Assembly: GCA_041686735.1 (NCBI GenBank)
Contig: JAWLDF010000013.1
Coordinates: 5,354 to 69,353 of the forward strand
Direction of reading: 5' to 3'
Origin: Bacilli bacterium
Lineage (GTDB): Bacteria > Bacillota > Bacilli > JACDOE01
Length of the DNA: 64,000 nucleotides
Shown here: positions 4,889 through 38,377 of the stretch, piece after piece
How the letters are laid out: the number at the start of each line of letters is the position of its first letter
Numbering within the stretch: the first letter of the stretch is position 1
Translations under genes and position numbers: made by a program
The notes under the pieces: generated by a model
Seen by the model: only the letters and a program-made list of their open reading frames with translations
What the model was told of the DNA's origin: nothing
Database searches by the model: none

Positions 4889-5860
<972 letters not shown>

Positions 5861-7324: not shown

Positions 7325-7338
7325 TAAGGGAGAGGACT

Positions 7339-8118: not shown

Positions 8119-8123
8119 CGGAG

Positions 8124-9416: not shown

Positions 9417-9435
9417 CTATAATGAGGATATTACT

Positions 9436-11107: not shown

Positions 11108-12146
11108 AATCATAATTTCTGATAAGAAAATTGGACCTAATCATGCCCCTTTTATTATCGCTGAAATGTCTGCCAATCATAATCAATCATTAGAACGAGC
11201 TCTTCAAATTGTTGAAAGAGCAGCTAAATCAGGGGTTCATGCTTTAAAACTGCAGACATATACACCTGATACAATAACACTTGATGTAGAAAACAAAGAT
11301 TTTTATATCAGTAATCTAGATTTATGGGAAGGACAATCCTTGTATAAACTTTATCAAAAAGCATATACTCCTTGGGAATGGCACAAACCAATATTTGATA
11401 AATGCAGAGAATTAGGGATAATTCCATTTAGTTCCCCATTTGATGAATTAGCAGTTGATTTTTTGGAAGAATTAGAGGTTCCTGTCTACAAAATTGCTTC
11501 ATTTGAGAATAATCATTTACCCCTTATCAGAAAAGTAGCTTCTACTGGAAAACCCATGATTATTTCTACAGGTATGGCAACAGTCTCCGAGATAGATAAA
11601 GCAGTTACTACGGCTAGAGAATCTGGTTGCAAAGACTTAATTTTATTAAAATGTACAAGTACTTATCCAGCATCACCTCAGAACTCAAATATTAATACCA
11701 TTCCTCATATGAGAACATTATTTGATTGTCAAGTAGGTCTCTCAGATCATACTTTAGGAATTGGTGTAGCTGTTGCTAGTATAGCATTAGGAGCGACTGT
11801 CATTGAAAAACATTTTACTCTTTCCCGTGAAGACGGAGGGGTAGATGCTGAATTCTCTTTAGAGCCTCAAGAAATGGAAATGTTAGTAAAAGAAACAGAA
11901 AGAGCATGGAAGTCCCTGGGCAAGATACAATATGGACCTACAGACCAAGAAAAGGAGTCTTCAAAGTATCGCAGATCATTATATATTTCAAAAGATATGA
12001 AAAAAGGCGAAAAATTAACAACTAATAATTTAAAAATTGTTAGACCCGGATATGGTTTGTCACCAGAGTATTATGAAATTATTTTGGGAAGAGAAATAAA
12101 ACAAGATGTAAAGAAAGGAACTGCTTTAACTTGGGATCTCATATAA
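11100..12146 (+). CDS. pseI: Pseudaminic acid synthase
   Basis: IIAEMSANHNQ, KLQTYTPDT, TPWEWH, KIASFE, GLSDHT, IEKHFT, C-terminal RRSLY..RPG SAF domain. Confidence 0.92.
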   Translation: MNEIIISDKKIGPNHAPFIIAEMSANHNQSLERALQIVERAAKSGVHALKLQTYTPDTITLDVENKDFYISNLDLWEGQSLYKLYQKAYTPWEWHKPIFDKCRELGIIPFSSPFDELAVDFLEELEVPVYKIASFENNHLPLIRKVASTGKPMIISTGMATVSEIDKAVTTARESGCKDLILLKCTSTYPASPQNSNINTIPHMRTLFDCQVGLSDHTLGIGVAVASIALGATVIEKHFTLSREDGGVDAEFSLEPQEMEMLVKETERAWKSLGKIQYGPTDQEKESSKYRRSLYISKDMKKGEKLTTNNLKIVRPGYGLSPEYYEIILGREIKQDVKKGTALTWDLI

Positions 12147-12164
12147 ATAAAGGGAGGATAAATA

Positions 12165-13361
12165 TTGGATAATGAAAAATTAAACACTCCTGTTAGAAAC
12201 AATTTCCTTCCCTATGGTCAACAGTGGATAGGAACAGAGGAGATTGAAGAAGTAATAAAGGTATTAAAAGCAGATTATATCACTCAGGGACCTAAAATCG
12301 TGGAATTTGAAAATAAAATAGCTAACTATGTAGGGGTTGAATATGCTGTTTCTTTTTCAAGTGGCACAGCTGCTTTACACGCCGCATGTTTTGCTGCAGG
12401 TATTCAGAATGGTGATGAAGTGATTACCACTCCCCTGACTTTTGCGGCTACTTCAAATAGTATCCTTTATCAGCAGGGGAAACCTGTATTTGTGGATGTA
12501 AATAAAAAAACATTTTTGTTGGATATAGAACAAGTTAAAGAAAAAATAACATCGCGAACAAAAGCCATTATTCCAGTAGATTTTACCGGTCAACCTGTAA
12601 ATATGGAGCTGTTCAAGGAATTTGCAAAAGATAATGGGTTAGTTTTTATACAGGATGCTGCCCATTCTCTAGGCGCATCATTTAATAACCAAAAAGTAGG
12701 AAAAATTGCAGACATGACTATATTTAGTTTCCATCCTGTAAAACCAATTACCACGGCTGAAGGAGGGGTGGTTGTCACAAATAATAAAGGATACTTTGAG
12801 AAGCTACTTCTTTTTAGGAGCCATGGAATTACAAGAGATTATAATTTATTAACTAACAAAGAAGAAGGTCCATGGTACTACGAAATGTTAGCGCTGGGTT
12901 ATAATTATCGAATGACAGACATACAAGCTGCTTTAGGACTTGCTCAACTTTCAAAACTGGATCAGTTTATCGAGAGAAGAAGACAGCTTGCACAAAAGTA
13001 CCACGAACTTCTATCAGACTTAGAGAGAAACGAATTAATAACCAGACCTTATGTTCAAAAAGGAGCATTATCTGGTTGGCATTTATATATTATTCAATTA
13101 CAACTGGATGCTTTAAGAGTTAATCGTAAAAAAATATTTGAAGCTTTGCATGCTATGAACATTGGAGTGAATGTACATTATATTCCAGTTTACTGGCATC
13201 CTTATTATAAAAAGTTAGGTTATTCAAAAGGGTTGTGTCCGGTTGCAGAGAAATTGTACAATTCATTTATTACCCTACCGCTTTTTCCCAAGATGACAGA
13301 TCAAGATGTAGAAGATGTGGTTGAAACACTTCACTCCGTATTATATTACTTTAAAAAGTAA
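12165..13361 (+). CDS. pseC: UDP-4-amino-4,6-dideoxy-N-acetyl-beta-L-altrosamine transaminase
   Basis: LPYGQQWI, SSGTAALH, DAAHSLG, FSFHPVKPITTAEGG, LGYNYRMTD; TTG start after GGGAGG. Confidence 0.9.
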   Translation: MDNEKLNTPVRNNFLPYGQQWIGTEEIEEVIKVLKADYITQGPKIVEFENKIANYVGVEYAVSFSSGTAALHAACFAAGIQNGDEVITTPLTFAATSNSILYQQGKPVFVDVNKKTFLLDIEQVKEKITSRTKAIIPVDFTGQPVNMELFKEFAKDNGLVFIQDAAHSLGASFNNQKVGKIADMTIFSFHPVKPITTAEGGVVVTNNKGYFEKLLLFRSHGITRDYNLLTNKEEGPWYYEMLALGYNYRMTDIQAALGLAQLSKLDQFIERRRQLAQKYHELLSDLERNELITRPYVQKGALSGWHLYIIQLQLDALRVNRKKIFEALHAMNIGVNVHYIPVYWHPYYKKLGYSKGLCPVAEKLYNSFITLPLFPKMTDQDVEDVVETLHSVLYYFKK

Positions 13362-13379
13362 TTGAATAATGAAAAAACT

Positions 13380-13406
13380 TAACAAAATTCATTAATTTGC
13401 CGATAT
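13380..13406 (+). promoter_or_regulatory. SigD (sigma-28) promoter of flaG
   Basis: TAAC-N15-GCCGATAT matches TAAA-N15/16-GCCGATAT consensus. Confidence 0.8.
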
Positions 13407-13443
13407 ATTTTATAAAATAATTATTTCGGGGAAGTGATGGATA

Positions 13444-13788
13444 ATGGAAATTCGTCGCACTGATATTAATAATTTTAATACTACAAATGAATTCATACAA
13501 AGAAATAATTCTAGTAATAAAGAAATAAATGTTGAAGAAGGTTCTGTTTTAAAGGTTCCAAATACTGAGAACGAGATCAAAAAAGTTGTTGAAACATTTA
13601 ATCATATGTTTGAAATTACACAAACACATTTAAAATTCTCCTATCATGACAAACTCGGGAAATATTATGTTAAGGTTGTAGATGACAAAACTAATAAGGT
13701 GATTAGAGAAATTCCTCCTGAGAAACTACTTGACTTGATTGCGAAAATGCAAGATTTTATGGGAATACTGTTCGATAAAAAAGTATAA
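13444..13788 (+). CDS. flaG: FlaG family protein
   Basis: LKFSYHDKLGKYYVKVVD..T.KVIREIPPEKLLD...GILFDKKV. Confidence 0.92.
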   Translation: MEIRRTDINNFNTTNEFIQRNNSSNKEINVEEGSVLKVPNTENEIKKVVETFNHMFEITQTHLKFSYHDKLGKYYVKVVDDKTNKVIREIPPEKLLDLIAKMQDFMGILFDKKV

Positions 13789-24484: not shown

Positions 24485-25522
24485 ATGAAAGTCTCAATCA
24501 TCGGAACAACGGGCTACGGGGGAGCGGAACTGATACGATTTTTACAACATCATCCTCACCTCCAGATAGCAACCCTTTACGCCCATTCAAAAGAAGGAAT
24601 GAATATCGCGGAAGTTTTTCCCCATCTGAACGGCGTTCGCCGGGAATCACTGCAGGCCATTGATGTCGATCGCATTGCGGAAGAAGCGGATCTTGTTTTC
24701 TTTGCCACGCCTTCCGGAATCAGCAGTCAGCTTGCCCCGCAAATTCTCGACCGTGGCGTCAAAGTGATCGATCTTTCCGGAGATTTTCGTTTGCATACAC
24801 AGGAGATGTATCAAAAATGGTATGGGAAAGAGGGAACCGATTCTCCCTGGTTGCAGAAAGCGGTATACGGTCTGAGCGAGTGGGCGCGGGATCAGGTCCG
24901 TGAGGCGACCCTGATCGCCAATCCCGGCTGTTATCCCACCGCAACGTTGCTCGGGTTGATTCCCCTGCTTAAAAAGGGGATCATCGATCCGAACACGGTA
25001 ATTGTCGATGCCAAGTCCGGTGTATCCGGTGCGGGCAAGGGTCTCTCGCAGGCCACACATTTTTCCGAAGTCAATGACAGTATCTCTGCATACAAAGTGG
25101 GCCGCCATCAGCACATTCCGGAAATGGAACAGGTGGCAAGTGAGTATGCAGGGGAGAAGATGACACTTTCCTTCACTCCCCACCTCGTCCCAATGACACG
25201 CGGAATTTTATCCGTAATCTATGCGTCATTGACCGAGGGAATCGAGGCGAAACAATTGCAAAAGTGGTACGAGGAGGTCTATGCCGATTCTCCTTTTGTC
25301 CGAATTCGTGAGGCGGGCAGCCATCCGAAAACAAAAGAAGTGTACGGATCCAACTATTGCGATATCGCCGTTCATGTTGAGGAAAGAACGGGCAGGGTCA
25401 TCATCCTGTCTGTGATCGATAATCTGGTCAAAGGAGCGGCGGGACAGGCGATTCAAAACGCCAACCTCATGCTGGGCATCCCCGAAGAGACCGGATTGCC
25501 GATGGTACCGATTTTTCCATAA
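24485..25522 (+). CDS. argC: N-acetyl-gamma-glutamyl-phosphate reductase
   Basis: GTTGYGG, DLSGDFRL, ANPGCYPTA, SGVSGAG, IDNLVKGAAGQA. Confidence 0.97.
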   Translation: MKVSIIGTTGYGGAELIRFLQHHPHLQIATLYAHSKEGMNIAEVFPHLNGVRRESLQAIDVDRIAEEADLVFFATPSGISSQLAPQILDRGVKVIDLSGDFRLHTQEMYQKWYGKEGTDSPWLQKAVYGLSEWARDQVREATLIANPGCYPTATLLGLIPLLKKGIIDPNTVIVDAKSGVSGAGKGLSQATHFSEVNDSISAYKVGRHQHIPEMEQVASEYAGEKMTLSFTPHLVPMTRGILSVIYASLTEGIEAKQLQKWYEEVYADSPFVRIREAGSHPKTKEVYGSNYCDIAVHVEERTGRVIILSVIDNLVKGAAGQAIQNANLMLGIPEETGLPMVPIFP

Positions 25523-25617
25523 ATGAACTCAATCGGATGGTGCCGGAGAAGACGGGAAAAGCCCGGCGTCCGATCAATCAGATAAATGAAGAAGTGACGG
25601 GGCGGAGGGAAACCAGA

Positions 25618-26421
25618 ATGGATAAAGAGATTGTGGTGATCAAATGTGGCGGAAGCACACTCGATGCTCTGCCGGATTCTTTTTATGAAGAAATCGCCGC
25701 GTTAAGGGAGCGGGGCGTGGTACCGGTGATGGTGCATGGCGGAGGACCGGCCATATCCGGCATGCTGGAGCAAATGAACATCACCCCGCAGTTTGTTGAC
25801 GGGATGCGTGTGACCGATGAAGTGACGCTGCAGGTGGTGCAGATGGTGCTGATCGGGCGGATCAATAAACAGATCGTCGTCCGTATGCAGCAGGCCGCAG
25901 CCCGGGCGACAGGCGTCAGCGGGATTGACGGGGGAATACTACAGGCCGTGCCACTCAATGAATCACTCGGCTATGTTGGACGAATCACGCAGGTTAACCC
26001 GGGCCTGATCCATGACCTGATCGATAAAAATTACACTGTGGTCGTGTCTCCGCTGGCCTGTGATGGCGGGGGACAGGTGTACAACATCAACGCGGATACC
26101 GCAGCCGGTGCAATTGCAGCTGTCCTGGGGGCGCGCCAACTGGTGATGGTGACCGATGTGCCCGGGGTGATGAAACCGGACGCGGAGGGGAACAAACAGG
26201 TGTTGTCGCTCTTGTCCGAACAGGAAGTGGAATCGTTGATCGCAGACGGAGTGATTTACGGCGGTATGATTCCCAAGGTGAAGGCAGCGCTGGACGGTCT
26301 CAACCAGGGCGTTGCTGAAGTGGTCATCGTCGACGGTAAAGAGGACGGGATTTTAACGCAGGTGGTAGAACGGAAGCCTGTGGGAACACGGATTGTAAAG
26401 GACGGGGTGACGATATCATGA
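25618..26421 (+). CDS. argB: Acetylglutamate kinase
   Basis: VIKCGGS, VHGGGP, GMRVTD, YNINADTAA, GGMIPKV; start after GGAGG. Confidence 0.96.
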   Translation: MDKEIVVIKCGGSTLDALPDSFYEEIAALRERGVVPVMVHGGGPAISGMLEQMNITPQFVDGMRVTDEVTLQVVQMVLIGRINKQIVVRMQQAAARATGVSGIDGGILQAVPLNESLGYVGRITQVNPGLIHDLIDKNYTVVVSPLACDGGGQVYNINADTAAGAIAAVLGARQLVMVTDVPGVMKPDAEGNKQVLSLLSEQEVESLIADGVIYGGMIPKVKAALDGLNQGVAEVVIVDGKEDGILTQVVERKPVGTRIVKDGVTIS

Positions 26422-27686
26422 CGACAAACGAAAACCAGAATCAGAACCAGCAGAACAAACAGAGCCATTTGTTTTCCAACTATGCCAGATGGCCGCTGGC
26501 CATTGTGCGCGGCGAAGGACATTACGTCTGGGATGAGCAAGGCAAAAAATATCTCGATTTTGTGAGCGGGATTGCCGTAACTTCCCTCGGTCATGTGCCT
26601 CCTGCTGTAAAAGCAAGAGTCCAGGCGCAACTGGATACGCTGTGGCACAGTTCCAATCTGTTTCAACACCCGCTGCAGGAACAACTGGCAGTGGAACTGT
26701 GTGCCCTGAGCGGCGGACTGGACCGTGTGCTGTTCGTCAACAGCGGAGCCGAGGCCAATGAAGCGGCGATCAAACTGGTACGAAGATATATGCACAGCAT
26801 TCGCGGACAAAAAGAGCGATATGAAATCATCACTTTTGAGCAATCTTTTCACGGACGGACGCTGGCCACACTGACCGCCACCGGTCAGGCCAAAGTAAAG
26901 GACGGTTTTGCCCCGTTGCCTGAAGGATTCGTGACCGTTCCCTATCAGGATATGGAGGCGCTCAAACAGGCGATCACCCCCGGGACCGCAGCAATTATGC
27001 TGGAACTGGTTCAGGGAGAGGGCGGCGTCAATCCTGCCGATGCAGACTGGATCAAGCAGGTCAAGGAACTATGCGGGCAGCATGATCTTCTCTTAGTGAT
27101 CGATGAGGTGCAAACCGGCATCGGCCGTACGGGAACATGGTTTGCATACCAGCAGTACGACATTCTACCGGATATCGTCACCATCGCTAAAGGATTGGGA
27201 AGCGGTTTTCCGGTGGGAGCGATCATGGCGCGGGAGTACCTGGCGGAAGCATTTTCGGCCGGGACCCACGGCACCACATTCGGCGGCAACCCGCTGGCGA
27301 TGGCTGCCGGGCTGGGAACCCTGGAAACCATACGTGATCAGGAAATCCTCGATCAGGTACAGCGTACCGGGACCTATTTTATGCAAAAATTATCCGAGCT
27401 GAAACAGCACTCCCCGCTGGTAAAAGATATACGGGGGAAAGGACTTCTTATTGGAGTGGCCATGGCAATGCCGGTGGCCCGGGTGATTGAACTTGCGAGG
27501 GAAAAGGGTGTTCTATTGCTGTCGGCAGGCACGAACGTGTTAAGGATTCTGCCTCCTTTAACGGTTACCACACAGGAAATCGATCATGCCGTAGGCGTGC
27601 TGGCATCGGTTCTGGAGGAGGTACAAAAAGAAGCGGAATCCAACATCGCCGGCGGTTCGGAGGAAGTGAAGTCACCGGTCCGGTAA
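26418..27686 (+). CDS. argD: Acetylornithine aminotransferase
   Basis: YLDFVSGIAV, NSGAEANEAA, SFHGRT, DEVQTGIGRTG, HGTTFGGNP. Confidence 0.95.
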   Translation: MTTNENQNQNQQNKQSHLFSNYARWPLAIVRGEGHYVWDEQGKKYLDFVSGIAVTSLGHVPPAVKARVQAQLDTLWHSSNLFQHPLQEQLAVELCALSGGLDRVLFVNSGAEANEAAIKLVRRYMHSIRGQKERYEIITFEQSFHGRTLATLTATGQAKVKDGFAPLPEGFVTVPYQDMEALKQAITPGTAAIMLELVQGEGGVNPADADWIKQVKELCGQHDLLLVIDEVQTGIGRTGTWFAYQQYDILPDIVTIAKGLGSGFPVGAIMAREYLAEAFSAGTHGTTFGGNPLAMAAGLGTLETIRDQEILDQVQRTGTYFMQKLSELKQHSPLVKDIRGKGLLIGVAMAMPVARVIELAREKGVLLLSAGTNVLRILPPLTVTTQEIDHAVGVLASVLEEVQKEAESNIAGGSEEVKSPVR

Positions 27687-27713
27687 GATGGGTCGATCAA
27701 GGGGTGGAGAGAG

Positions 27714-28865
27714 ATGAAGAAAGAAAAGGCAAACGGATATTTACTGTTAAGCACGGGAGATGTTTTTGAGGGAAAATGGTTCGGAGCTCCGCCGACAGGT
27801 GAGGCGGTTGAAGGGGAAATGGTGTTTAACACGGGGATGACCGGATATCAGGAAGTGATGACCGATCCGTCCTATGCCGGGCAGATCGTCACTTTTACCT
27901 ATCCGCTCATCGGCAACTACGGTATCAGCGACCTTGATTTTGAAAGTGTCCGCCCTGCCCTGCATGGGATTATCATCAGTGAACTCTGCGAAGAACCGAG
28001 CCATTTTCAAGCGCAGACATCCCTGTCTGAACTGGCTGAACAGTTCGGGATTTCCGGACTTTATGATATCGATACACGCGCCCTGACCCGCCTTATCCGA
28101 CAACACGGGGAATTGTACGGCAAAATCACGATTGACCCGCAGGAAGCGGAACGCTGCAAAGTAGACGGAGGGTTTGAGGCAAAGTGGCGCACGGATTGCG
28201 TGGCGTCCGTGTCCGGTCGCGTGATCCAAACGTTTGAACCTGCTTCCGTCGGTTCGGCGGATGCCGGTGCGGTCGCAGTTGACGTGCCCCATGTGGTATT
28301 AATTGATTTCGGCCACAAAAAATCGATTTGTGATGCGCTTTTGCAGGAGGGTTGTCGCGTTACGATCGTTCCTTATGATACCACGGCGGAACAAATCGAG
28401 GACCTTGCGCCGGACGGGATTGTATTATCCAACGGACCGGGGGACCCCAAAGATGTTTCGTTTGTTTTGCCGACCATTCAGGCTCTTGCTGATCACTATC
28501 CCATGTTCGGAATCTGCCTTGGTCATCAGTTGATCGCTCTTGCCCATGGATGTGATACGGTGCGGCTTCCCTTCGGACACCGCGGCAGTAATCACCCGGT
28601 CAAAGAAGTGGCAAGCGGCAAAGTTTATATCACATCGCAAAACCACGGTTACACCGTGCATGAAGATTCCGTGCCACCGCAGGAATGGGTGGTTTCCCAC
28701 CGCAATGTGAATGACGGCTCGGTGGAAGGGATCGAACATCGTATTAAACCTGTGTCGGGTGTGCAGTTTCATCCGGAAGCCCATCCCGGACCGCAGGATA
28801 CCCATCATTTGTTTAAACGCTTTATCACGCAATGTATGTCCACGGGGGAGAAGAGTTATGCCTAA
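27714..28865 (+). CDS. carA: Carbamoyl-phosphate synthase small subunit (arginine-specific)
   Basis: FNTGMTGYQE, LSNGPGDP, GICLGHQ, QFHPEA. Confidence 0.96.
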   Translation: MKKEKANGYLLLSTGDVFEGKWFGAPPTGEAVEGEMVFNTGMTGYQEVMTDPSYAGQIVTFTYPLIGNYGISDLDFESVRPALHGIIISELCEEPSHFQAQTSLSELAEQFGISGLYDIDTRALTRLIRQHGELYGKITIDPQEAERCKVDGGFEAKWRTDCVASVSGRVIQTFEPASVGSADAGAVAVDVPHVVLIDFGHKKSICDALLQEGCRVTIVPYDTTAEQIEDLAPDGIVLSNGPGDPKDVSFVLPTIQALADHYPMFGICLGHQLIALAHGCDTVRLPFGHRGSNHPVKEVASGKVYITSQNHGYTVHEDSVPPQEWVVSHRNVNDGSVEGIEHRIKPVSGVQFHPEAHPGPQDTHHLFKRFITQCMSTGEKSYA

Positions 28866-31800
28866 ATTTGAACATATTAAAAAAGTGCTCGTGATCGGCT
28901 CCGGGCCGATTGTGATCGGGCAGGCGGCGGAGTTTGATTATGCAGGTACACAGGCCTGCCTCGCTCTCAAGGAAGAGGGCGTGGAGGTGGTACTGGTCAA
29001 CAATAATCCCGCCACGATCATGACCGATCACGAGATCGCCGATCGTATTTATATGGAACCGTTAACCGTCGCTTCCCTCTCCCGTATTATTGAGAAAGAA
29101 CGACCAGACGGGATCCTGCCTACCCTGGGCGGGCAAACGGGGTTGAATCTGGCGGTTTCTCTCTCCGACGCGGGGGTGCTGGATAAGTATGACGTGATCC
29201 TGCTGGGGACTCCGCTGGAAACGATTCGAAATGCCGAAGATCGGGAAGCGTTTAAATCGATGATGCAAAAAATCGGTGAGCCGGTACCGGAAAGCCAGAC
29301 GGTGAACACGGTGAAGGATGCACTGGAGTTTGCGGACTCAATCGGATATCCCGTGATTGTGCGCCCCGCTTATACCCTGGGTGGAGCCGGCGGCGGAATT
29401 GCTGCTGATGCGGGGGAACTGCTGGCGGTAGCCAAACGGGGAATTGATGCCAGCCCGATCGGACAGATTTTGGTGGAACGAAGTGTAAAAGGGTGGAAAG
29501 AGATCGAATATGAAGTGATGCGCGATGCCGGGGATACCTGCATCATCGTCTGCAATATGGAAAATATGGATCCGGTGGGCATTCATACCGGCGACAGCAT
29601 CGTAGTCGCCCCCTCACAGACGCTGAATGACCGTCAGTACCAGATGCTGCGGTCGGCAGCTTGTAAAGTGATCCGATCCCTCGGGGTGGTGGGGGGCTGC
29701 AATATCCAGTATGCGCTCGACCCGGAGAGTGATCAGTATTATCTGATCGAGGTCAACCCGCGGGTGAGTCGTTCCAGTGCCCTCGCCTCCAAGGCGACCG
29801 GTTATCCGATTGCACGGATCGCGGCCAAACTGGCCCTCGGTTATCATCTCGATGAAGTGACCAATCCGGTGACGGGCCACACCTACGCCAGTTTTGAACC
29901 GGCGATCGACTATGTGGTGGCGAAAATTCCGCGCTGGCCCTTTGACAAGTTTCCGCTGGCTGACCGCCGCTTAACCACACAGATGAAGGCGACGGGAGAA
30001 GTGATGGCCCTGGCCCGCAATCTGGAAGCGGCTCTGTTAAAAGCGGTACGTTCATTGGAAATCGGCGCTGATCATCTGTGGCTGCCCCATCTTTCCTCGC
30101 TTTCCCATGAGCATTTAAAAAAGGGACTGGTGGATGCGACGGACGAACGACTTTTTCTGCTGGCGGAAGTCTTTCGCAGGGGCTGGAGAGTTGCCGACAT
30201 CCACGGCCTGACCGAGATCGATCCCTTTTTCCTGCAAAAAATTGCCCGCATTGTTGAGCTGGAGCAGGCGCTGGCCACTTACACCTGGGAGGATGTGCCC
30301 CGGGAATTGCTGACGGAAGCGAAACAGAGGGGATTTTCCGATGCCTGGCTGGCGCGCAGTTTTTCCGTATCGGAGCATGAGGTTCGCTCGAGATGGCGTG
30401 AGTGGAACCGTGCTCCCGCCTACAAGTTGGTGGATACCTGTGCCGCGGAGTTTGATGCGGAGACGCCTTACTACTATTCGACCTGGCAGGGACTGGATGA
30501 AGTCGAGGTCTCCCAGGCGGGAAAAAAGGTGCTGGTGATCGGCTCCGGTCCGATCCGGATCGGGCAGGGGGTTGAGTTCGATTATTGTTCGGTTCACGCC
30601 GCGCAGTCCCTGAAGCGAAACGGGGTGGAGGCGGTTGTGGTCAACAATAATCCGGAAACGGTCAGCACCGATTTTGAAACGGCGGATCAATTGTATTTTG
30701 AACCGTTGACGGCGGAAGATGTGATCCACATCGCCGATAAAGAGAAGGTAGACGGTGTGATGGTTCAGTTCGGCGGCCAGACAGCGATCAATCTGGCGGC
30801 TGCCCTGGCCGATGCGGGACTCCATCTCTACGGAACACCGCTGGTCAGTATTGACCGCGTGGAAGACCGCGATTTGTTTTATCAGATGTTGCGGGAACTG
30901 GGTATTCCCCATATTGCGGGAACAGGGGTGCATACGGAGGCGGAGGCCCTTGCAGCAGCAGAGGAGATCGGTTATCCGGTGTTGATTCGTCCTTCATATG
31001 TGATCGGCGGTCGCGGCATGGTGGTTTTGTACGATGAGCAGCAGCTGCGACAATATCTGAGTGAGTTGCAACAGTGGGCAAGTGTGGAGCAATTGTTTCC
31101 GCTGTTGATTGATAAATATGTGGCAGGAAAAGAAGTGGAACTGGATGCCGTTTGTGACGGAGAGGATGTATTGATTCCGGGGATTTTTGAGCATGTGGAA
31201 CGGGCCGGGGTTCACTCGGGTGACAGTACGGCGGTATTCCCGTCTCCTTCCTTGTCGGATTCGCACAAGCAGATGATTGCGGATTACACACGAAAAATTG
31301 TGCGTGAGCTCGGTGCGGTCGGACTGATTAATATCCAGTGGGTGTGGGATCAGCAGGCCGATGTTATTTATGTGCTTGAGGTGAATCCGCGTGCTTCGCG
31401 AACGGTTCCGATCGTAAGCAAAATCACCGGTATTCCCATGGTTGATCTGGCGGTACAGTGCCAGCTGGGACGGTCGTTACGGAATTTGATGATGGAGTTT
31501 GAAGGTGGTCCGGAAGCTGAGGGGGCCGTTGGAACAGTCGGGTACGAAGATACTCTCGGATTGATGCCGGATATTCCTTACTATGCGGTGAAAGCACCCG
31601 TTTTTTCGACGGTGAAGTTGAATGGCGTAGATCCGGCGCTGGGACCGGAGATGAAATCAACCGGCGAGAGTCTCGGGCTGGGATTGACGGTTGAGGAAGC
31701 GATGAGCAAGGCACTGCACTGGAAAGAGGATGTCAACCCGCCGTTGCAAAAGGGAGATGCCATATTTTTATCCCTGTCGGATGGAGATAAGGCGGATGGC

Positions 31801-32223
31801 GAGGAGATCGTTTCTCACATTAAGGTGTTGGAACTGGAAGTGAGTGCGACGAAGGGAACGGCAGCGTGGCTCGAGCAACAGGGAGTGGAGGTGCAGCGAA
31901 TCATTCATGATGTGGAGGAGTTACGGCAGTGGATTTCGGAGTATCCGGAAAAACCTCCGCTGCAAATGATGTGTATTACGCCTACCCGCGGCAATGATGC
32001 GAAAAGGGCAGGTTTTGCGTTGCGACAGTTATCGCTGCAGTATCAGATTACCTGTTTTACGGCGCTGGATACGGTGAAGGCATTTCTTGGGCTTTCTGCC
32101 GCTGCGGCTGGTATTGCTGAAGTCGGTGGTACCACTGGTGCCAGGGAACCTCAACCGCGAGAATTGATGGAATATGGTCGTTTGGCTGAAAAAAATCGGG
32201 AGAAGGAAGGTGCTCACATATGA
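28858..32223 (+). CDS. carB: Carbamoyl-phosphate synthase large subunit (arginine-specific)
   Basis: MPK..VIGSGPIVIGQAAEFDYAG, duplicated GSGPIRIGQGVEFDY, EVNPR twice. Confidence 0.97.
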   Translation: MPKFEHIKKVLVIGSGPIVIGQAAEFDYAGTQACLALKEEGVEVVLVNNNPATIMTDHEIADRIYMEPLTVASLSRIIEKERPDGILPTLGGQTGLNLAVSLSDAGVLDKYDVILLGTPLETIRNAEDREAFKSMMQKIGEPVPESQTVNTVKDALEFADSIGYPVIVRPAYTLGGAGGGIAADAGELLAVAKRGIDASPIGQILVERSVKGWKEIEYEVMRDAGDTCIIVCNMENMDPVGIHTGDSIVVAPSQTLNDRQYQMLRSAACKVIRSLGVVGGCNIQYALDPESDQYYLIEVNPRVSRSSALASKATGYPIARIAAKLALGYHLDEVTNPVTGHTYASFEPAIDYVVAKIPRWPFDKFPLADRRLTTQMKATGEVMALARNLEAALLKAVRSLEIGADHLWLPHLSSLSHEHLKKGLVDATDERLFLLAEVFRRGWRVADIHGLTEIDPFFLQKIARIVELEQALATYTWEDVPRELLTEAKQRGFSDAWLARSFSVSEHEVRSRWREWNRAPAYKLVDTCAAEFDAETPYYYSTWQGLDEVEVSQAGKKVLVIGSGPIRIGQGVEFDYCSVHAAQSLKRNGVEAVVVNNNPETVSTDFETADQLYFEPLTAEDVIHIADKEKVDGVMVQFGGQTAINLAAALADAGLHLYGTPLVSIDRVEDRDLFYQMLRELGIPHIAGTGVHTEAEALAAAEEIGYPVLIRPSYVIGGRGMVVLYDEQQLRQYLSELQQWASVEQLFPLLIDKYVAGKEVELDAVCDGEDVLIPGIFEHVERAGVHSGDSTAVFPSPSLSDSHKQMIADYTRKIVRELGAVGLINIQWVWDQQADVIYVLEVNPRASRTVPIVSKITGIPMVDLAVQCQLGRSLRNLMMEFEGGPEAEGAVGTVGYEDTLGLMPDIPYYAVKAPVFSTVKLNGVDPALGPEMKSTGESLGLGLTVEEAMSKALHWKEDVNPPLQKGDAIFLSLSDGDKADGEEIVSHIKVLELEVSATKGTAAWLEQQGVEVQRIIHDVEELRQWISEYPEKPPLQMMCITPTRGNDAKRAGFALRQLSLQYQITCFTALDTVKAFLGLSAAAAGIAEVGGTTGAREPQPRELMEYGRLAEKNREKEGAHI

Positions 32224-33209
32224 GTGTGGAAGTGGTGAAGATGGTAACGGCGGATCTGGATAAAGAACAGCGGATCAAGGAACAGTTGAAGGGTCGTGAT
32301 TTTTTGACGCTGGCCGATTTTGACCGGGAGGAACTGGCCTACCTGCTCGATCTGGCTGCGCGCCTGAAGGAGATCCAAAAATCGGGTGCAACCTATCATC
32401 CGTTGAAGGGGAAAACGCTGGGCATGATTTTTGAAAAATCCTCCACTCGTACTCGGGTGTCGTTTGAGGTGGGGATTTATCAGCTGGGCGGACAGGGGAT
32501 GTTCCTCAGTAGTCGCGACCTGCAGATCGGACGTGGCGAGCCCGTTTCCGACACCGCGAAGGTGTTGTCCCGTTATCTGGACGGCATCATGATCCGGACT
32601 TTCTCCCATGAGGGTGTGGAAGAGCTGGCGGCCAACGCGACGATTCCGGTGATTAACGGATTGACGGACATGTTCCATCCCTGTCAGGTGATGGCCGATC
32701 TGCAGACGATCCAGGAGCAAAAAGGGGAGCTGCAGGGGCTGAAACTGGCATTTGTGGGTGACGGAAACAACATGGCTCACTCGTTGTTACTTGGGGCAGC
32801 GATTTTTGGGATGGATATTGCGATTGCATCGCCTAAGCAGGATCAGCCTGATCCGGTTGTCGTTGCGCGGGCGAAAGAATTTGCCGCTGAATCCGGCAGT
32901 CAGGTTGTGATTACGGACGATCCGGTGGAAGCGGTGCAAGGTGCTGATATCGTCTATACCGATGTATGGGCCAGCATGGGGCAGGAGGCTGAGCAGGCTG
33001 AGCGGGCGAAGCGTTTTGCTCCGTATCAGGTGAATGCGGAACTGGTGCAGCATGCGAAGAACGATTATATTTTTATGCATTGTCTCCCGGCCCATCGCGG
33101 TGAGGAAGTGAGTGCAGACGTGATCGACGGGGCTCACTCCGTTGTGTTTGACCAGTCGGAAAACCGTCTCCATGTGCAAAAAGCGATCATGGCGGCGTTG
33201 ATGGGGTAG
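32220..33209 (+). CDS. argF: Ornithine carbamoyltransferase
   Basis: FEKSSTRTR, HPCQ, YTDVWASMG, HCLP. Confidence 0.97.
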   Translation: MSVEVVKMVTADLDKEQRIKEQLKGRDFLTLADFDREELAYLLDLAARLKEIQKSGATYHPLKGKTLGMIFEKSSTRTRVSFEVGIYQLGGQGMFLSSRDLQIGRGEPVSDTAKVLSRYLDGIMIRTFSHEGVEELAANATIPVINGLTDMFHPCQVMADLQTIQEQKGELQGLKLAFVGDGNNMAHSLLLGAAIFGMDIAIASPKQDQPDPVVVARAKEFAAESGSQVVITDDPVEAVQGADIVYTDVWASMGQEAEQAERAKRFAPYQVNAELVQHAKNDYIFMHCLPAHRGEEVSADVIDGAHSVVFDQSENRLHVQKAIMAALMG

Positions 33210-33482
33210 TTTGGACGTGGGATTTGTACTGAGATTTGATTTTTGAGGGGATGTTTTAAGGGTATGATGGGGGAGTCGGCATCTCTGGTCGGTCAGGTGA
33301 CCTCAGGTTGGATCGTATGTTTGCCGGGATACCGGCTCCGCAGGATCTCCCATAGTTGAGTGGTAATGGTGAATGACTCAATTTACCGTAAGATTTCCCT
33401 TGCGTGATTGTTGGGGTATGGTGTATTCTATGTAGTGTTCACCGTTGTTCAGGTGTCTTTGATTGAGTGTTAGATTGTTTGT

Positions 33483-33571
33483 GCCCGGGTGGCGGAATTG
33501 GCAGACGCACAGGACTTAAAATCCTGGGTCTCGTGAGAGACGTGGGGGTTCAAGTCCCCCCCTGGGCACCA
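33483..33571 (+). tRNA. tRNA-Leu(TAA)
   Basis: GCCCGGG/CCTGGGC acceptor, CAGGA-CT-TAA-AA-TCCTG anticodon arm, long variable arm, TTCAAGT T-loop, CCA. Confidence 0.96.
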
Positions 33572-33849
33572 TCTTTATCTGCGAGACAATTGTAATTTTA
33601 TAACATGAAACTTTCTTTCGCTGGGTGGAACTGTTATGAAAAGAGAAAGTGACCGGTAATAAATTAAGACGAAAAAAAACACCCTATTTAACGAAAATTG
33701 CTCAAATCGCTAAATTTAAGACGAAAAATTCGTCTTAATTCATTCCTGATGTTCTCGTAAACCTCGACCCAAATTCTGGTCCCATCAAATTCACCCTGTC
33801 ACTTATCAATGAACCCAAAAATCAGTAAAAATGTTCATCATCCCAAGTC

Positions 33850-33878
33850 TTGTAAAGCCGTTTCAAACGTGGTATCAT
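33850..33878 (+). promoter_or_regulatory. SigA promoter of tRNA-Asn/Ser
   Basis: TTGTAA-N17-TATCAT with TG extended -10. Confidence 0.65.
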
Positions 33879-33921
33879 ACCTTTTGTAACGGTTGGAAGC
33901 ATACTATATTGCATCATTCAT

Positions 33922-33996
33922 TCCGCAGTAGCTCAATGGTGGAGCAACCGGCTGTTAACCGGTAGGTTGCAGGTTCGAGTCCTGCCTGCGGAGCCA
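33922..33996 (+). tRNA. tRNA-Asn(GTT)
   Basis: TCCGCAG/CTGCGGA acceptor, ACCGG-CT-GTT-AA-CCGGT anticodon arm, GGTTCGAGTCC, CCA. Confidence 0.97.
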
Positions 33997-33999
33997 TTC

Positions 34000-34092
34000 G
34001 GAGGAGTACCCAAGTCTGGCTGAAGGGAGCGGTCTTGAAAACCGCCAGGGCGTTCACGCGTCGCGGGGGTTCGAATCCCTCCTCCTCCGCCA
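34000..34092 (+). tRNA. tRNA-Ser(TGA)
   Basis: GGAGGAG/CTCCTCC acceptor, GCGGT-CT-TGA-AA-ACCGC, long variable arm, GGTTCGAATCC, CCA. Confidence 0.97.
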
Positions 34093-34141
34093 TAATAGAA
34101 CTCAATGAAACGCAAAGTAAATAAACCGGCAAGAGTAAAGC

Positions 34142-34283
34142 AGGGATTTGAACCCGCTCTCCGAGGAGAGAAGGGGTTCATTGGAAACACGACGAGGACA
34201 GGGCCGAAGGGCCGTGCCGAGTCGATGTTGGATTCCGGAGACGAGCCGATGGAATCGGCGAAGGGAAGGTATCCCTCCTCCTC
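34142..34283 (+). repeat. tRNA-linked branched hairpin element ending in a 13-bp copy of the tRNA-Ser 3' end
   Basis: ATCCCTCCTCCTC at 34075-34087 and 34271-34283; GGGATTTGAACCC 34143-34155 is antisense to the T-arm; four stems. Confidence 0.75.
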
Positions 34284-34312
34284 ATATTATGGAGAAAGGT
34301 TGAATTCCCACG

Positions 34313-35305
34313 ATGACTAAATTACCACGAAGGATAAAGTTGGCTCATCAACCGACACCGATAGAAAAACTTGACCGGTTGTCGGATTTGCTTGATGGAC
34401 CGGAAATATATATTAAACGGGATGATTTGACCGGGAGTGAAATATCCGGCAATAAGATTCGCAAACTCGAATTTTCCCTTGCCGAAGCATTGGATCAGGG
34501 CGCCGATGTACTGGTTACTTGTGGAGGAATACAATCAAATCATGCACGGGCTACAGCCGTTGCGGCTGCAAAGCTGGGTATCTCATCTTGCTTGATTTTA
34601 TCGGGAACAGGACGTGAACAACTGACCGGAAATTATTTTATTGACGTTCTGGTCGGCGCCAAAATCAAACTGGTCACCCCCGAGCGGTACCGCAATGAAA
34701 TAGACGCTGTTTTTGCTGAAACAAGAGCTGAACTGGAAGAACAAGGGTATAAACCTTATCTCATTCCCCTGGGTGCCTCCAACGGAATTGGAACCTTTGG
34801 ATATGTTAATGCCATGAAAGAGATAAGCCAGCAGGAAAAAGACCTGGGAGTGAGTTTCAATAAGATTGTCATTGCTGTGGGTTCGGGAGGTACTTATGCA
34901 GGACTGCTTTTAGGCAGCAAACTGATGGGCCTGGAAAAAGAGATATATGGTATGAACGTTGCGCATAATGCTGACTACTTTACAAACAGGATTGAGGAAA
35001 TCCTGATCGAAGCAGTGGATTACATGGAAGACAATGTAAACATCAGCAGGGATGAAATTCACATTTTGGACGGATATGTAGGTCCCGGATATGGGCTTAA
35101 TAATCAGGAACAAATCGAAACTGTAAAAAAGGTGGCCCGGTTGGAAGGAGTCGTTCTAGATCCTGTGTATACAGGCAAGGCCATGCATGGACTGATTGAA
35201 GAAATATACAAAGGTCGGGTGTTCAGCAAAGAGGACAAGGTGCTTTTCATTCATACCGGTGGACAATATGGGTTGTTCCCCTTTGCAGACAGGTTTGAAG
35301 AGTGA
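34313..35305 (+). CDS. D-cysteine desulfhydrase / ACC deaminase family PLP enzyme
   Basis: PTP, IKRDDLTG..SGNKIRKLEF, GGIQSNHAR, GSGGTYAG, LDPVYTGKA, FIHTGG. Confidence 0.9.
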   Translation: MTKLPRRIKLAHQPTPIEKLDRLSDLLDGPEIYIKRDDLTGSEISGNKIRKLEFSLAEALDQGADVLVTCGGIQSNHARATAVAAAKLGISSCLILSGTGREQLTGNYFIDVLVGAKIKLVTPERYRNEIDAVFAETRAELEEQGYKPYLIPLGASNGIGTFGYVNAMKEISQQEKDLGVSFNKIVIAVGSGGTYAGLLLGSKLMGLEKEIYGMNVAHNADYFTNRIEEILIEAVDYMEDNVNISRDEIHILDGYVGPGYGLNNQEQIETVKKVARLEGVVLDPVYTGKAMHGLIEEIYKGRVFSKEDKVLFIHTGGQYGLFPFADRFEE

Positions 35306-35329
35306 TATTAATAATCGTTGCATAAAGCT

Positions 35330-35359
35330 TCCCTCCGTTAAGTCGTGAGGGATTTTTTT
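35330..35359 (+). terminator. Terminator after desulfhydrase gene
   Basis: TCCCTC...GAGGGA followed by T7. Confidence 0.65.
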
Positions 35360-35377
35360 ACATATTGTATTCGGAAA

Positions 35378-35394
35378 TTTGAATAAATATGCGT
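35378..35394. promoter_or_regulatory. Single ARG box upstream of argG
   Basis: TTTGAATAAATATGCGT. Confidence 0.5.
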
Positions 35395-35540
35395 CACAAC
35401 TGCAATAAACAACCACTTGTCTGTTTTTCAGATCAAATCCGTAGTGGAACATATTGTCGTTCTATTTCCACCGATTTACTCAATGTCGTAACGACTCATT
35501 ACCCCGGCCCACATTCGACAAAATTATTTCACTTACAGGT

Positions 35541-35578
35541 ATTGAATTTTTATTAATAATATTGCATAATTATTTCAT
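35541..35578. promoter_or_regulatory. Tandem ARG boxes upstream of argG
   Basis: ATTGAATTTTTATTAAT-N3-ATTGCATAATTATTTCAT. Confidence 0.7.
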
Positions 35579-35705
35579 GCTCATTTTCATGCTTATGCTC
35601 TTTTTCACCTTGCACATGTTTCGCATCAATACCAAACTATTGTTCCAATCATTATAATCGTGATATGAAGATAAAAGGATTTAATCAAAGGAGAGGAGTA
35701 GTACC

Positions 35706-36959
35706 ATGGCTAAAGAAAAAGTGGTTCTGGCGTACTCGGGAGGTCTGGATACCTCCGTTGCCATCAAGTGGTTGCAGGATACTTATCATTACGACGTGAT
35801 TGCGGTCGCAGTAGACGTCGGGGAGGGAAAAGACCTCGACTTTATCAAAGAAAAGGCGCTCAAGGTGGGAGCAGTCAAATCCATCGTGGTGGATGCACGT
35901 GAACTGTTCAGCAAGGAGTACCTTCTGCCGGCTTTAAAAGCCAACGCCATGTATGAAGGAAAATACCCGCTGGTGTCTGCACTGTCGAGACCGCTCATTT
36001 CAAAAATCCTGGTGGACATTGCCGAGAAGGAAGGCGCCGTGGCTGTCGCACACGGATGTACGGGGAAAGGGAATGACCAGGTCCGTTTTGACGTGTCGAT
36101 TACCGCACTCAACCCCAACCTCAAAATCGTCGCTCCCGTACGGGAATGGGCAATGTCGCGTGAAGAAGAAATCGAATATGCGAAAAAGAACGGGATTCCC
36201 ATTCCGATCGATTTAGATAACCCGTACAGTATTGACCAGAACCTGTGGGGACGCAGCTGCGAGTGCGGCGTGCTGGAAGATCCGTGGGTCGAGCCGCCGA
36301 AAGGAGCCTACGATCTCACCAACCATCTCGAGGATACACCGGATCAGCCGGACGAAATTGAAATCACTTTTGAAAAAGGGGTACCGGTGGCTCTGAACGG
36401 TGAACAGAAGCCGCTGTACGAAATCGTTGCCGACCTGAACAAGGTTGCTGGGAAGCACGGCGTGGGACGGATCGACCATGTAGAGAACCGTCTAGTCGGG
36501 ATCAAATCACGTGAAGTGTACGAAGCGCCGGCAGCGATGACACTGATCCTGGCCCATCGCGAACTGGAATCGATTACCCAGCCGCGGGAAGTGGCTCAGT
36601 TTAAACCGATTATCGAACATAAAATCTCTCAAGTGATATATGAAGGTCTGTGGTTTTCGCCGATCATGGATGCCCTGCAGGCTTTCGTCGAGGAAACCCA
36701 GAAGCACGTGAGTGGAACAGTGCGTGTCAAGTTGTTTAAAGGTCACGCCATCGTGGTGGGGCGTAAATCGGATCATTCGCTTTATAGCTTTGAGCTGGCT
36801 ACCTATAATCCGGACGATCAATTTGACCATAAAGCAGCCCTCGGGTTTATCAAGCTGTGGGGACTGCCAACCGAAGTTTATTCCAAGGTCAATCCCGACC
36901 AGCGCAACAAGGGTGGCAAAGCAGTGATTGTCGACGAAAAGGAAGATGTGAAAGCATGA
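35706..36959 (+). CDS. argG: Argininosuccinate synthase
   Basis: [37 protein letters not shown]. Confidence 0.98.
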
Positions 36960-38377
36960 AGTTGTGGGGCGGACGTTTCACCAGAGCAACCAACGAACTC
37001 GTAGACGAATATACGGCCTCCATCTATTTTGATCAGCAACTGGCCGAACAGGATATCACCGGCTCACTTGCCCACGTGAAGATGCTGGGTAAGTGCGGCA
37101 TCCTGAGCGGGGAAGAAGTGGAACAGATTTCACAGGGCCTCAAAACGGTAGCGCAAAAGATCGCTGCCGGTGAGGCTTCTTTTACGGTAGCCAACGAAGA
37201 TATTCATATGAATATCGAAAAAATGCTGATCGATGAGATCGGTCCTGTCGGGGGGAAATTACACACCGGCCGCAGCCGCAACGATCAGGTGGCGCTGGAT
37301 ATGCATCTTTACCTGCGCGAACAGGTGCTGGAGCTGATCGGACTATTGATCAATCTGCAAAAGGCGTTAATCAAACAGGCCAAAGAGAATCTCGACACGA
37401 TTCTGCCGGGCTACACCCATCTGCAACGGGCCCAGCCGGTTTTGTTCGCCCACCATTTGATGGCCTATTGTGCCATGTTTCAGCGGGATATCGAACGCCT
37501 GCAGGATAGCTGGAAAAGAATCAATGTCATGCCCCTCGGAGCCGGGGCCCTTGCCGGAACCACTTTTCCGATCGACCGAGAGTATGTGGCCGAATTGCTC
37601 CGTTTTGATGAGGTTTATGAAAACAGCATGGACGCGGTCAGTGACCGTGATTTCATCGTGGAGTTCTTATCCCATGCTTCCCTGATCATCGCCCACCTCT
37701 CCCGTTTGTCGGAGGAGCTGGTACTGTGGTCGAGCCAGGAGTTTTCTTTTATTGAACTGGACGATTCCTTCTGTACGGGAAGCAGTATTATGCCGCAAAA
37801 AAAGAATCCCGACGTTGCCGAACTTGTGCGGGGAAAAACGGGACGGGTGTACGGCAACCTCATCGGCATGTTGACGGTCCTGAAAGGGTTACCCCTCTCA
37901 TACAACAAAGATATGCAGGAAGATAAAGAGGGGATGTTTGACACCGTAAAAACGCTGCACGGGGCGCTCTCCCTGTTTGCGCCCATGATCGAAACGATGC
38001 AGGTAAGAAAAGAGAAAATGGCGCAGGCGGTCAAACAGGATTTTTCCAATGCGACCGATCTTGCCGATTACCTGGTGAACAAAGGGATGCCATTCCGTGA
38101 AGCCCACGAAGTAGTGGGCAAGACGGTGTTATACTGCATCCAAAACGGGAAGTATCTGGCGGATATGAGCTTTGAGGAATACCGCCGCTTTTCCGGTTTG
38201 TTCGATGAGGATATCTATCAGGCGATCGATATCACCACCGTCGTCAACGCGCGCAATGTGCAGGGCGGGACGGCACGTCCACAGGTGGAAAAACAGATCC
38301 GACTTGCAGAAGAGAAGCTGATCGGACATAATCAATGGTGGCAACAACATGTCGATAAGATTAAAATCGACCTGTAA
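36956..38377 (+). CDS. argH: Argininosuccinate lyase
   Basis: [28 protein letters not shown]. Confidence 0.98.

Follow-up and report, generated by a model that had tools for sequence, protein, structure and literature searches.

The window, that is, the whole 64-kb stretch of DNA that was analysed, comes from contig JAWLDF010000013.1 of a Bacilli genome (G000 in what follows) and contains, directly behind a tRNA-Ser(UGA) gene, a folded element whose ends are built from that tRNA. An initial annotation had described it as a branched, tRNA-anchored element with a copied tRNA 3' end and an inverted T arm, and had proposed that it acts as a folded single-stranded DNA (ssDNA) recombination site. 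The source of the ends is the T arm plus the 3' end of tRNA-Ser(UGA), at positions 34067-34092, and the following parts were found at the locus:

34000 to 34092, plus strand: tRNA-Ser(UGA) gene, the anchor (ARAGORN; Rfam tRNA, 52 bits).
34093 to 34141, plus strand: spacer from the tRNA to the element (compared by eye).
34142 to 34155, plus strand: antisense T-arm strand, in which AGGGAT (34142-34147) is the 5' strand of helix P1, TT the junction and GAACCC (34150-34155) the 5' strand of helix P2.
34156 to 34173, plus strand: variable small hairpin capping P2, CTCTC-CGAG-GAGAG (RNAalifold).
34174 to 34180, plus strand: 3' strand of P2, GGGTTCA, a sense copy of the 5' half of the tRNA T arm (nucleotides (nt) 49-57).
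34186 to 34229, plus strand: long arm P3, with AACA/TGTT, CGAC/GTCG, a tandem G.A step and GG/CC, and a distal hairpin at 34201-34213 (covariation in 17 copies).
34235 to 34269, plus strand: second arm P4, with an outer CC/GG, GA...GA flanks and the hairpin GCCGAT-GGA-ATCGGC at 34245-34259 (RNAalifold and pair counts).
34271 to 34283, plus strand: tail, a direct copy of nt 59-71 of tRNA-Ser, ATCCCTCCTCCTC, the first 6 nt of which are the 3' strand of P1.

Read from 5' to 3', the element thus consists of five parts: the antisense T-arm strand, a variable loop or hairpin, sense nt 49-57 of the tRNA, a conserved core of 60-100 nt with the long arm P3 and the second arm P4, and sense nt 59-76. The first 6-7 nt of this last part form the 3' strand of P1, and the 3' strand of the acceptor stem and the NCCA end are left unpaired. 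Judged from its sequence, the element is a copy of the 3' part of a tRNA in which A58 has been replaced by the core, with an antisense strand that clamps a four-way junction. In order to assess chance occurrence, the short matches were compared with shuffled sequences. The 13-mer that begins at tRNA position 59, ATCCCTCCTCCTC, matches the window exactly at two sites and no others, 34075-34087 and 34271-34283, both on the plus strand, versus a mean of 0.06 matches in the shuffles, none of which (0 of 100) contained two. The 13-mer of the T arm matches perfectly on the plus strand at 34067-34079 and with one mismatch on the minus strand at 34143-34155, a statistic that is weaker when taken alone (chance mean of 0.20, two matches in 2 of 100 shuffles). 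Both the tail copy and the inverted T arm with one change were therefore located where the initial annotation had placed them.

The stretch from 34093 to 34312 folded better than shuffled sequences on both strands, with z = -3.2 for the plus and z = -4.35 for the minus strand, and 0 of 200 shuffles were as good in either case. When RNAalifold was applied to 8 distinct copies of the element (see below), AGGGAT/ATCCCT, the hairpin-capped GAACCC/GGGTTC, the long arm and GCCGAT-GGA-ATCGGC were recovered, and the four-way fold, the helices and the coordinates given initially are correct. Covariation was then evaluated in the core alignment A5 of 17 distinct copies, in which 15 pairs were counted. 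Overall, 46 cells were changed on both sides versus 15.5 in shuffles, and the covariation score was 0.461 versus 0.153 in shuffled alignments, a value reached by 0 of 500 of them, while slid controls stayed at or below 0.055. P3 was paired in 97% of its cells, and both sides had changed in 6 of its 10 pairs. A tandem G.A step is conserved in this arm, and the stems beside it vary between CGAC/GTCG, CTGT/ACAG, CGAA/TTCG, CGGT/ACCG and CGCA/TGCG. In the short type of the element, P4 consists of three base pairs (CAC/GTG or CGC/GCG); in the family to which the window belongs, a hairpin enlarges this arm. As for P1, 4-6 of its first 6 pairs are formed in 18 of 18 copies, and at pair 4 we counted 13 copies with G-C, 4 with A-T and 1 with A.C. 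The last pair of P2 (10-46) is U-A in the window copy only, a compensatory change at the base of this helix, and in the Arg-UCU copy of G000 the stem that caps P2 has been swapped for an unrelated TCCGC/GCGGA. Many of the loops are GNA triloops closed by C-G, and the unpaired junction nucleotides are invariant in the core alignment. A coding reading of the locus, based on overlapping open reading frames (ORFs) of 71 and 51 amino acids, was ruled out because the copies differ by loop indels of 1, 2 and 4 nt.

A BLAST search of G000 with the window element found one copy 90% identical to it behind tRNA-Ser(GGA) and another, 88% identical, behind tRNA-Arg(UCU), as well as a copy behind a second tRNA-Ser(UGA) gene that is truncated to its spacer, antisense strand and first hairpin. 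This core-less remnant lies on the minus strand at G000:C5:401-486 (locus L002), where the sequence then enters the leader of a tRNA-Ser(GCU) gene, and its counterpart in G001 is a full unit. The family and the order contain one other genome, G001, which carries 7 copies behind the same four tRNA loci, among them an array of three 207-bp units at Arg-UCU and one of two 197-bp units at Ser-UGA. Since the same four loci are occupied in both genera of the family, the copies are old and not recent insertions. Within G000, the copies resemble one another more closely than they do those at the corresponding loci of G001, a sign of gene conversion between copies. The number of units per locus ranges from 1 to 3, contig C56 of G000 holding 1.5 units. 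Within the spacer, a 20-nt block (34103-34122) recurs by eye in the spacers of the two further G000 copies that are linked to a tRNA-Ser gene.

A covariance model of the 8 distinct copies (R1) was run on a sample of 151 genomes of the class. It detected diverged copies in G023, G028 and G066, and follow-up searches added G004 and G155, whereas weak R1 matches in G026 and G046 turned out to be GC-rich coding sequence and were discarded. In total, 23 copies with a core were found in 7 genomes of three Bacilli families (2 of 2 genomes in f1, 4 of 15 in f4 and 1 of 1 in f23). These searches were made on samples, and elsewhere the element was not found in the genomes searched: a model of the core (R2) gave no match in 150 other genomes sampled from the phylum and revealed no further family in two samples of 150 genomes from the class, apart from a weak match in G074 (E 0.006) that was not inspected. 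In a 17-mer scan of genome contigs, the matches listed looked like chance or coding hits in unrelated phyla; locus L062, with two matches 207 bp apart, was also among the matches listed. Gapped-pattern scans of metagenome and viral contigs gave, among the matches listed, coding or chance hits, including a conserved phage gene, and none with the flanking motifs. Apart from tRNA, Rfam has no family that covers the element, be it at gathering score or at E <= 10. Rfam rows for sX4, Tombus_3_IV and snoRNAs were considered and rejected as far below the cut-offs, the sX4 match lying mainly on the upstream tRNA-Ser gene. We found no description of such elements in Firmicutes in the literature searched.

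All 23 copies lie on the strand of the tRNA, 19-60 nt 3' of the tRNA gene or of the preceding unit. Five anchor species were observed: Ser-UGA, Ser-GGA, Arg-UCU, Glu-UUC and Arg-ACG. In G000, an element or its remnant is present at 4 of the 5 tRNA genes with the T arm GGGTTCGAATCCCTC and at 0 of the other 61. Of the 66 tRNA genes of this genome, 3 are followed within 600 nt by a solo copy of their nt 59-71, and all three such copies belong to the element. Every anchor tRNA has the T loop TTCGAAT; the tRNA-Glu of G154 (L319), a genome that lacks the element, has TTCGAGT, as do the tRNA-Arg(ACG) genes of G000 (C10, C69), which lack the element, and this may be a coincidence.

The ends of the copies had been predicted to covary with the adjacent tRNA. 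The last 18 nt of the element equal nt 59-76 of the upstream tRNA at 18 of 18 positions in 14 of the 23 copies, at 17 in four and at 16 in two; the remaining three are the window copy, in which identity ends after 13 of 18 nt and GCCA is absent, and two copies at operon ends that have no tail. The tails of three Glu copies of G155 were scored from the raw sequence, their tRNA being incomplete in the sequence examined. Exact copies of nt 59-76 occur as tails for five tRNA species, among which there are three different T stems. The 5' strand of P1 and the 3' strand of P2 also track the T stem of the anchor, as illustrated by the Arg-ACG copies with AGAGAT, GAGTTCG and ATCTCT. The ends thus follow the adjacent tRNA as predicted. 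The start of the identity block is fixed at nt 59, and its right end is variable, from 13 to 112 nt, in single and last units.

Repeats with tails of this sort are known from Escherichia coli, where tRNA-linked repeats (TLRs) have been described since 1978; PMC8144298 cites Egan & Landy 1978, Rudd 1999 and Bosl & Kersten 1991/1994 for them, counts 22 TLRs at ten loci and gives as their hallmark an identity of 18-19 bp at the 3' end with the upstream tRNA or rRNA. The initial annotation had named a match to a described island scar or to an Rfam family as an outcome that would refute its interpretation. Half of this outcome was obtained: no Rfam model matches, as stated above, but the architecture is that of the described TLRs. 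The reading that we consider probable is that the element represents an uncatalogued Bacilli family of the TLR kind, most likely an RNA that is co-transcribed with the tRNAs.

The length of the tail also suggests a different origin, namely a relic of reverse transcription primed by a tRNA, the tail having been rebuilt from whichever tRNA acted as primer. An 18-nt unit equal to nt 59-76 of a tRNA is what retroviral and long-terminal-repeat element primer-binding sites consist of, and the tRNA, spacer, element and tail together resemble a copy of a tRNA extended by cDNA. This origin would account for a tail that is exactly nt 59-76 in five species and that matches each new anchor. The tails of E. 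coli TLRs are likewise 18-19 nt long and occur behind rRNA genes too (PMC8144298), which suggests a ruler that measures from the mature 3' end. However, the copy in the element is a sense copy on the tRNA strand, unlike a primer-binding site, and neither G000 nor G001, which bear arrays, has a match to RVT_1, the reverse transcriptase (RT) domain, while the loci are stable across genera. The m1A58 block that sets the retroviral length of 18 nt is not evident either, because matches to GCD14/TrmI, the m1A58 methyltransferase, were absent from G000, G001 and G155 and only weak in G023 and G028. The fixed edge at nt 59 is also explained by the fold, in which nt 59-64 are paired in P1 and nt 49-57 in P2. 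We therefore regard a reverse-transcription relic as very improbable.

The element might instead be an inert scar, i.e. a partial tRNA duplication with a junk insert that was kept only by chance or by gene conversion with the adjacent tRNA. Decaying copies (the window tail at 13 of 18 nt, the two copies without a tail and the core-less G000 C5:401-486) would fit this explanation, and so would the patchy distribution, with 4 of 15 genomes in f4 and 0 of 150 in the phylum sample. Such a scar is nevertheless improbable in our judgement, as the core is conserved across three families, unlike the spacers, the junction nucleotides are invariant, and compensatory changes were found in P3, P4 and P2.

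Next, the proposal that the element moves as DNA was considered, either as a branched ssDNA site of the plus strand, similar to attC or to the ends of IS200/IS605, or as a miniature integrative element that inserts at the T loop of tRNA genes and leaves tail repeats of the attL/attR type. Several features are in its favour. The direct repeats start at a fixed point, nt 59, and end at variable points between 13 and 112 nt, which resembles the identity blocks of att sites; the long-type core is found behind three tRNA species in one family with matching tails, so that it has moved between tRNA genes at some time; and the element is absent from the same tRNA-Glu/tRNA-Val junction in related genomes. 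The loops are often GNA triloops closed by C-G, which are very stable in DNA. The sense strand of the tRNA would be the lagging-strand template, as is the case for genes co-oriented with replication. In addition, coverage of exonuclease-resistant DNA at tyrT-rttR was raised under stress in an E. coli mobilome, according to the data described for this locus in 10.1101/2024.07.17.603846.

The searches for a partner enzyme point in the other direction. The 54 ORFs of at least 110 amino acids in the window were scanned against Pfam, and no integrase, recombinase, transposase or reverse transcriptase was found among them; they comprise flagellar, nonulosonic-acid glycosylation, secA, prfB, transketolase, arginine and histidine biosynthesis and uvrAB genes and a few unassigned ones. 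The initial annotation was thus right that the window holds no integrase, and the linked tyrosine recombinase or HUH gene that it had suggested looking for was missing from these ORFs, with no Y1_Tnp match in G000 or G001. These two genomes likewise gave no RVT_1 match, while RT and Y1 genes do exist in G023, G028 and G155. As regards an IntI partner, none of the window ORFs scanned matches a recombinase, and a genome-wide search for IntI was not made. Neither the long nor the short type of the element matched any of 50,697 phage or 72,556 plasmid records.

Tandem arrays exist, as had been anticipated, but they do not separate variable genes: only spacers of 20-60 nt lie between the units, and the repeats enclose nothing other than 180-200 nt of non-coding DNA. 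Four loci are common to two genera. At the tRNA-Glu/tRNA-Val junction, G154 and G066 have 1-8 nt and G028 has a unit plus about 70 further nt, so the difference between filled and empty site exceeds the unit and leaves no clean insertion footprint. In G028 and G155, about 70 nt that contain repeated CAGA/GTCAG-like words come after the tail (L142, L158, L160 and L318 compared); G048, a genome without the element, has a comparable stretch after tRNA-Glu. Williams reportedly distinguished, in 2002, a T-loop and a 3'-end integration class among tyrosine-integrase elements in tRNA genes. Like the attL/attR remnants of such elements, the Bacilli units carry a direct repeat of the tRNA 3' end that begins in the T loop; unlike them, they have no integrase or cargo, their insert of 140 nt is conserved and covaries, and their loci are orthologous across genera. 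With attC, the ends of IS200/IS605 and REP/RAYT they share a structure that is strand-specific and lies on the lagging-strand template, and they differ from these in having a four-way junction made of tRNA parts in place of an imperfect hairpin, and in the absence of cassettes. They also differ from attC and IS200/IS605 in that no Y1 partner is found in G000 or G001 and no IntI or other recombinase match in the window. Mobility at the DNA level is thus unlikely, and the idea of an attC-like site that captures genes is not supported, as no partner enzyme was found in the window or, for Y1, in G000 and G001, no cassettes are present and the loci are stable.

The initial annotation had taken GNA triloops and G.A mismatches as signs of ssDNA structure. 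Those features do not argue for DNA, because E. coli RtT, which is annotated as a small RNA (sRNA) and treated as an RNA in the papers cited here, has them as well. Several observations are more readily reconciled with an RNA read from the plus strand. A number of copies sit between tRNA genes 3' of a 5S rRNA gene, and two of the four loci scanned (L141 and L143) start with 5S. In several loci a terminator is present only after the last unit, in the window no terminator-like site was found between tRNA-Ser and the element, and several loops have the GNRA form in the plus sense. Taken together with the tandem G.A step and the E. coli parallel, operon position, terminator placement and GNRA loops make a plus-strand RNA the most likely product in our analysis.

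Around the element, the window contains the following features:

33850 to 33878, plus strand: promoter-like site TTGTAA-17-TATCAT with TG, about 45 nt 5' of tRNA-Asn (consensus scan only).
33922 to 33996, plus strand: tRNA-Asn(GUU) gene (ARAGORN; Rfam tRNA, 72.8 bits).
34313 to 35305, plus strand: gene for an enzyme dependent on pyridoxal phosphate (PLP), of the PALP family (Pfam), downstream and outside the element.

The site at 33850-33878 is a possible start of a transcript of tRNA-Asn, tRNA-Ser and the element. The downstream gene raises the question of whether the element is a riboswitch-like leader that regulates it in cis. The element ends 30 nt before the start codon at 34313, with no terminator-like site in between, and its C-rich tail could pair with GGAGAAAGG 5' of the ATG. 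Such a leader is contradicted by the other copies, since these precede tRNA genes (Thr, Ser, Val, Pro or Phe), further units or terminators; only 1 of the 23 copies precedes a PLP-enzyme gene, so that the PALP gene is not a conserved neighbour, and we find this explanation hardly credible.

Further from the element, genes assigned by Pfam alone to arginine metabolism extend from 24485 to 38374 and include argC-like, argB-like and argD-like genes, carA, carB and an ornithine carbamoyltransferase gene. This run is broken by tRNA-Leu, tRNA-Asn, tRNA-Ser, the element and the PALP gene, after which genes for argininosuccinate synthase and lyase follow (also Pfam only). At the other end of the window, from 211 to 13785, fliD, fliS and flaG surround a cluster of the nonulosonic-acid type (MptE-like, Polysacc_synt_2, CMP-transferase, NeuB, DegT and GNATs), a region that looks like a flagellin glycosylation island.

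According to the reading as a TLR-type RNA family, units of about 105-150 nt, non-coding and strongly folded, would reside in tRNA operons, often rRNA-tRNA operons, behind one tRNA gene, and would be transcribed together with the tRNAs, as their position and the analogy with RtT and RrB suggest. The RNA released would have about 150-200 nt and would begin right after the tRNA and extend to the CCA that ends the tail, like the rttR annotation. Its 3' end would be made by the machinery that matures tRNA 3' ends; we propose that unit and tRNA share this machinery because both carry the same 18 nt. Arrays may grow and shrink by unequal crossing-over between tail copies, and truncated last units and the core-less copy may have arisen via deletion.

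A number of results weigh against this reading. The loss of GCCA from the window copy and the absence of the tail from two others indicate that the tail is dispensable or that these copies are decaying. The strand is not settled by wobble counts, because the helices disagree: P3 and P4 have 5 G.U versus 0 A.C, but P1 has 12 A.C versus 2 G.U (126 cells), and the wobble cells of each set trace to only a few events. In the Arg-UCU loci, tRNA and element are separated by a terminator-like hairpin and its T-rich tail (L003, about 1440-1480; L013, about 1458-1490), present in every unit of the arrays and with a stem that differs between the genomes yet still pairs, and read-through there is therefore expected to be lower. 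Each of the 24 public RNA or DNA runs listed holds at most 0.10 of the sampled words, which says nothing on expression, and the four public runs compared cover only 33917-34103, i.e. the two tRNA genes. Finally, the covariance models did not connect the two groups of repeats. RF00391, the Rfam family of RtT (gathering score 45 bits), did not match the window, either at gathering score or at E <= 10, and it found nothing in 5 element-bearing genomes at E <= 1, with a positive E. coli control, or over 4 loci of the short type at E <= 1; in the other direction, R2 found nothing in E. coli K-12 at E <= 10. Homology to the E. coli TLRs is thus not demonstrated, as it is not significant by these models.

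With filters off, R1 and R2 gave only matches of 6-12 bits in K-12, several of the best of which fell in register on TLR copies. R2 run in this way aligns in register to three serX-linked TLRs (L341) at about 7 bits (E about 1.4), and the alignment takes in the T-arm half, the AAC...GTT stem followed by GGA and the ...GAGT-tail end. Such low-bit matches are suggestive of a distant kinship between the Bacilli and E. coli repeats and do not amount to evidence for it.

A more far-reaching version of the TLR reading was also formulated. The TLR type could be one ancient class that crosses phyla and colonises new stable-RNA genes, with both ends (the antisense T-arm strand and the tail of 18-19 nt) rebuilt for each host RNA by a mechanism that measures from the mature 3' end, for instance with the mature tRNA as primer or template, and whose product then works as a two-state RNA. 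In the first state, the antisense strand would clamp the split T arm of the element itself, the four-way junction would form and a normal tRNA would be released; in the second, it would clamp the T arm of the upstream tRNA, and the tRNA body would pair with the element tail. In RNAfold predictions for the tRNA plus element, the structure of minimum free energy (MFE) pairs the 5' acceptor strand of the tRNA with the tail at 4 of 4 loci tried, and when the acceptor-tail pairing was forced in the 3 transcripts in which two sites complementary to the acceptor were identified, the energy was equal to the MFE or within 0.2 kcal/mol of it. As RNAfold leaves out the tertiary structure of tRNA and the order of co-transcriptional folding, a two-state RNA is a possibility that arises from this modelling, and to the ancient class as a whole, with all its steps, we would give only a slim chance.

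In the favoured reading of a TLR-type RNA family, the finding has several consequences. The same unusual build is met in a distant phylum: an antisense T-arm strand, a folded core that interrupts the T arm at position 58, and the tail of 18 nt. Because this build recurs there with a different core, it seems to be the architecture, and not one sequence family, that is selected or generated. The Bacilli family offers independent material on the role of tail and clamp, be it in 3'-end processing, as a decoy for enzymes that act on tRNA 3' ends or as a switch, and it sharpens the question of how elements gain a tail that matches each new tRNA. A second phylum and an unrelated-looking core make the old TLR question easier to attack. 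For genome annotation, such elements account for "att-like" repeats of tRNA tails that have no integrase nearby.

The comparison with E. coli was made on K-12. The unit of tyrT/tyrV (178 bp) has an antisense strand of the tRNA-Tyr T arm, a small hairpin, the sense 5' half of the T arm, a core of about 68 nt with GNA-triloop hairpins and then 19 nt of the tRNA-Tyr 3' end. RF00391 gives 16 matches in K-12, of which 8 were inspected. Each of these terminates in 18-19 nt from the upstream tRNA to which it is linked (Tyr, Pro, Lys three times, Ser and Arg twice), and a clear antisense T-arm start is present in 4. The annotated sRNA rttR lies on the tRNA strand; it starts right after tyrV and extends as far as the CCA of the first tail. 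In the Rfam structure of RtT, the closing helix P1 is formed by the antisense strand and the tail, and P1 of the Bacilli element is formed likewise.

Like the E. coli TLRs (RtT, rttR, RF00391), the Bacilli units lie directly behind a tRNA gene, with which they share operon and strand; their last 18-19 nt repeat the 3' end of that tRNA including CCA, for various species; they occur as 1-3 units per locus, versus 1-5 there, with tandem periods of 197-207 bp versus 178 bp at tyrT; and they begin with an antisense T-arm strand and the T-arm 5' half, with the core inserted at T-loop position 57-59. They also share GNA triloops and the tandem G.A motif, the latter having been derived for RtT RNA from covariation in the analysis reported in 10.1101/2020.02.04.933952, and by eye two short motifs, GATGAGAAC at the 5' end and, immediately 5' of the tail, CGA-hairpin-GAGT. 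The differences are the phylum and the core, which has no detectable homology and consists of two arms (P3 and P4), in contrast to three or four short hairpins in E. coli; in addition, the Bacilli tail starts at nt 59 and has 18 nt, unlike that of most E. coli copies, which starts at nt 58 and has 19 nt. The features examined in sequence that belong to the TLR definition, as it is worded in the passages of PMC8144298 on these repeats, were all present: operon position, tail identity and units per locus.

The same passages of PMC8144298 provide the closest functional parallel. RrA, RrB and RrF, from E. coli rrnA, rrnB and rrnD, are of the TLR kind and lie in a stable-RNA operon, as do the Bacilli units; they arise by read-through followed by processing, the final 18 nt of the RNA upstream of them are repeated at their 3' end, and the authors propose that the tail is probably a 3'-processing signal. 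These three TLRs, which like RtT are transcribed and processed, are anchored to 5S rRNA, unlike the Bacilli element, and bind Hfq and CsrA in vitro. TLRs as a kind are already known, and what is new is the Bacilli family with its distinct core.

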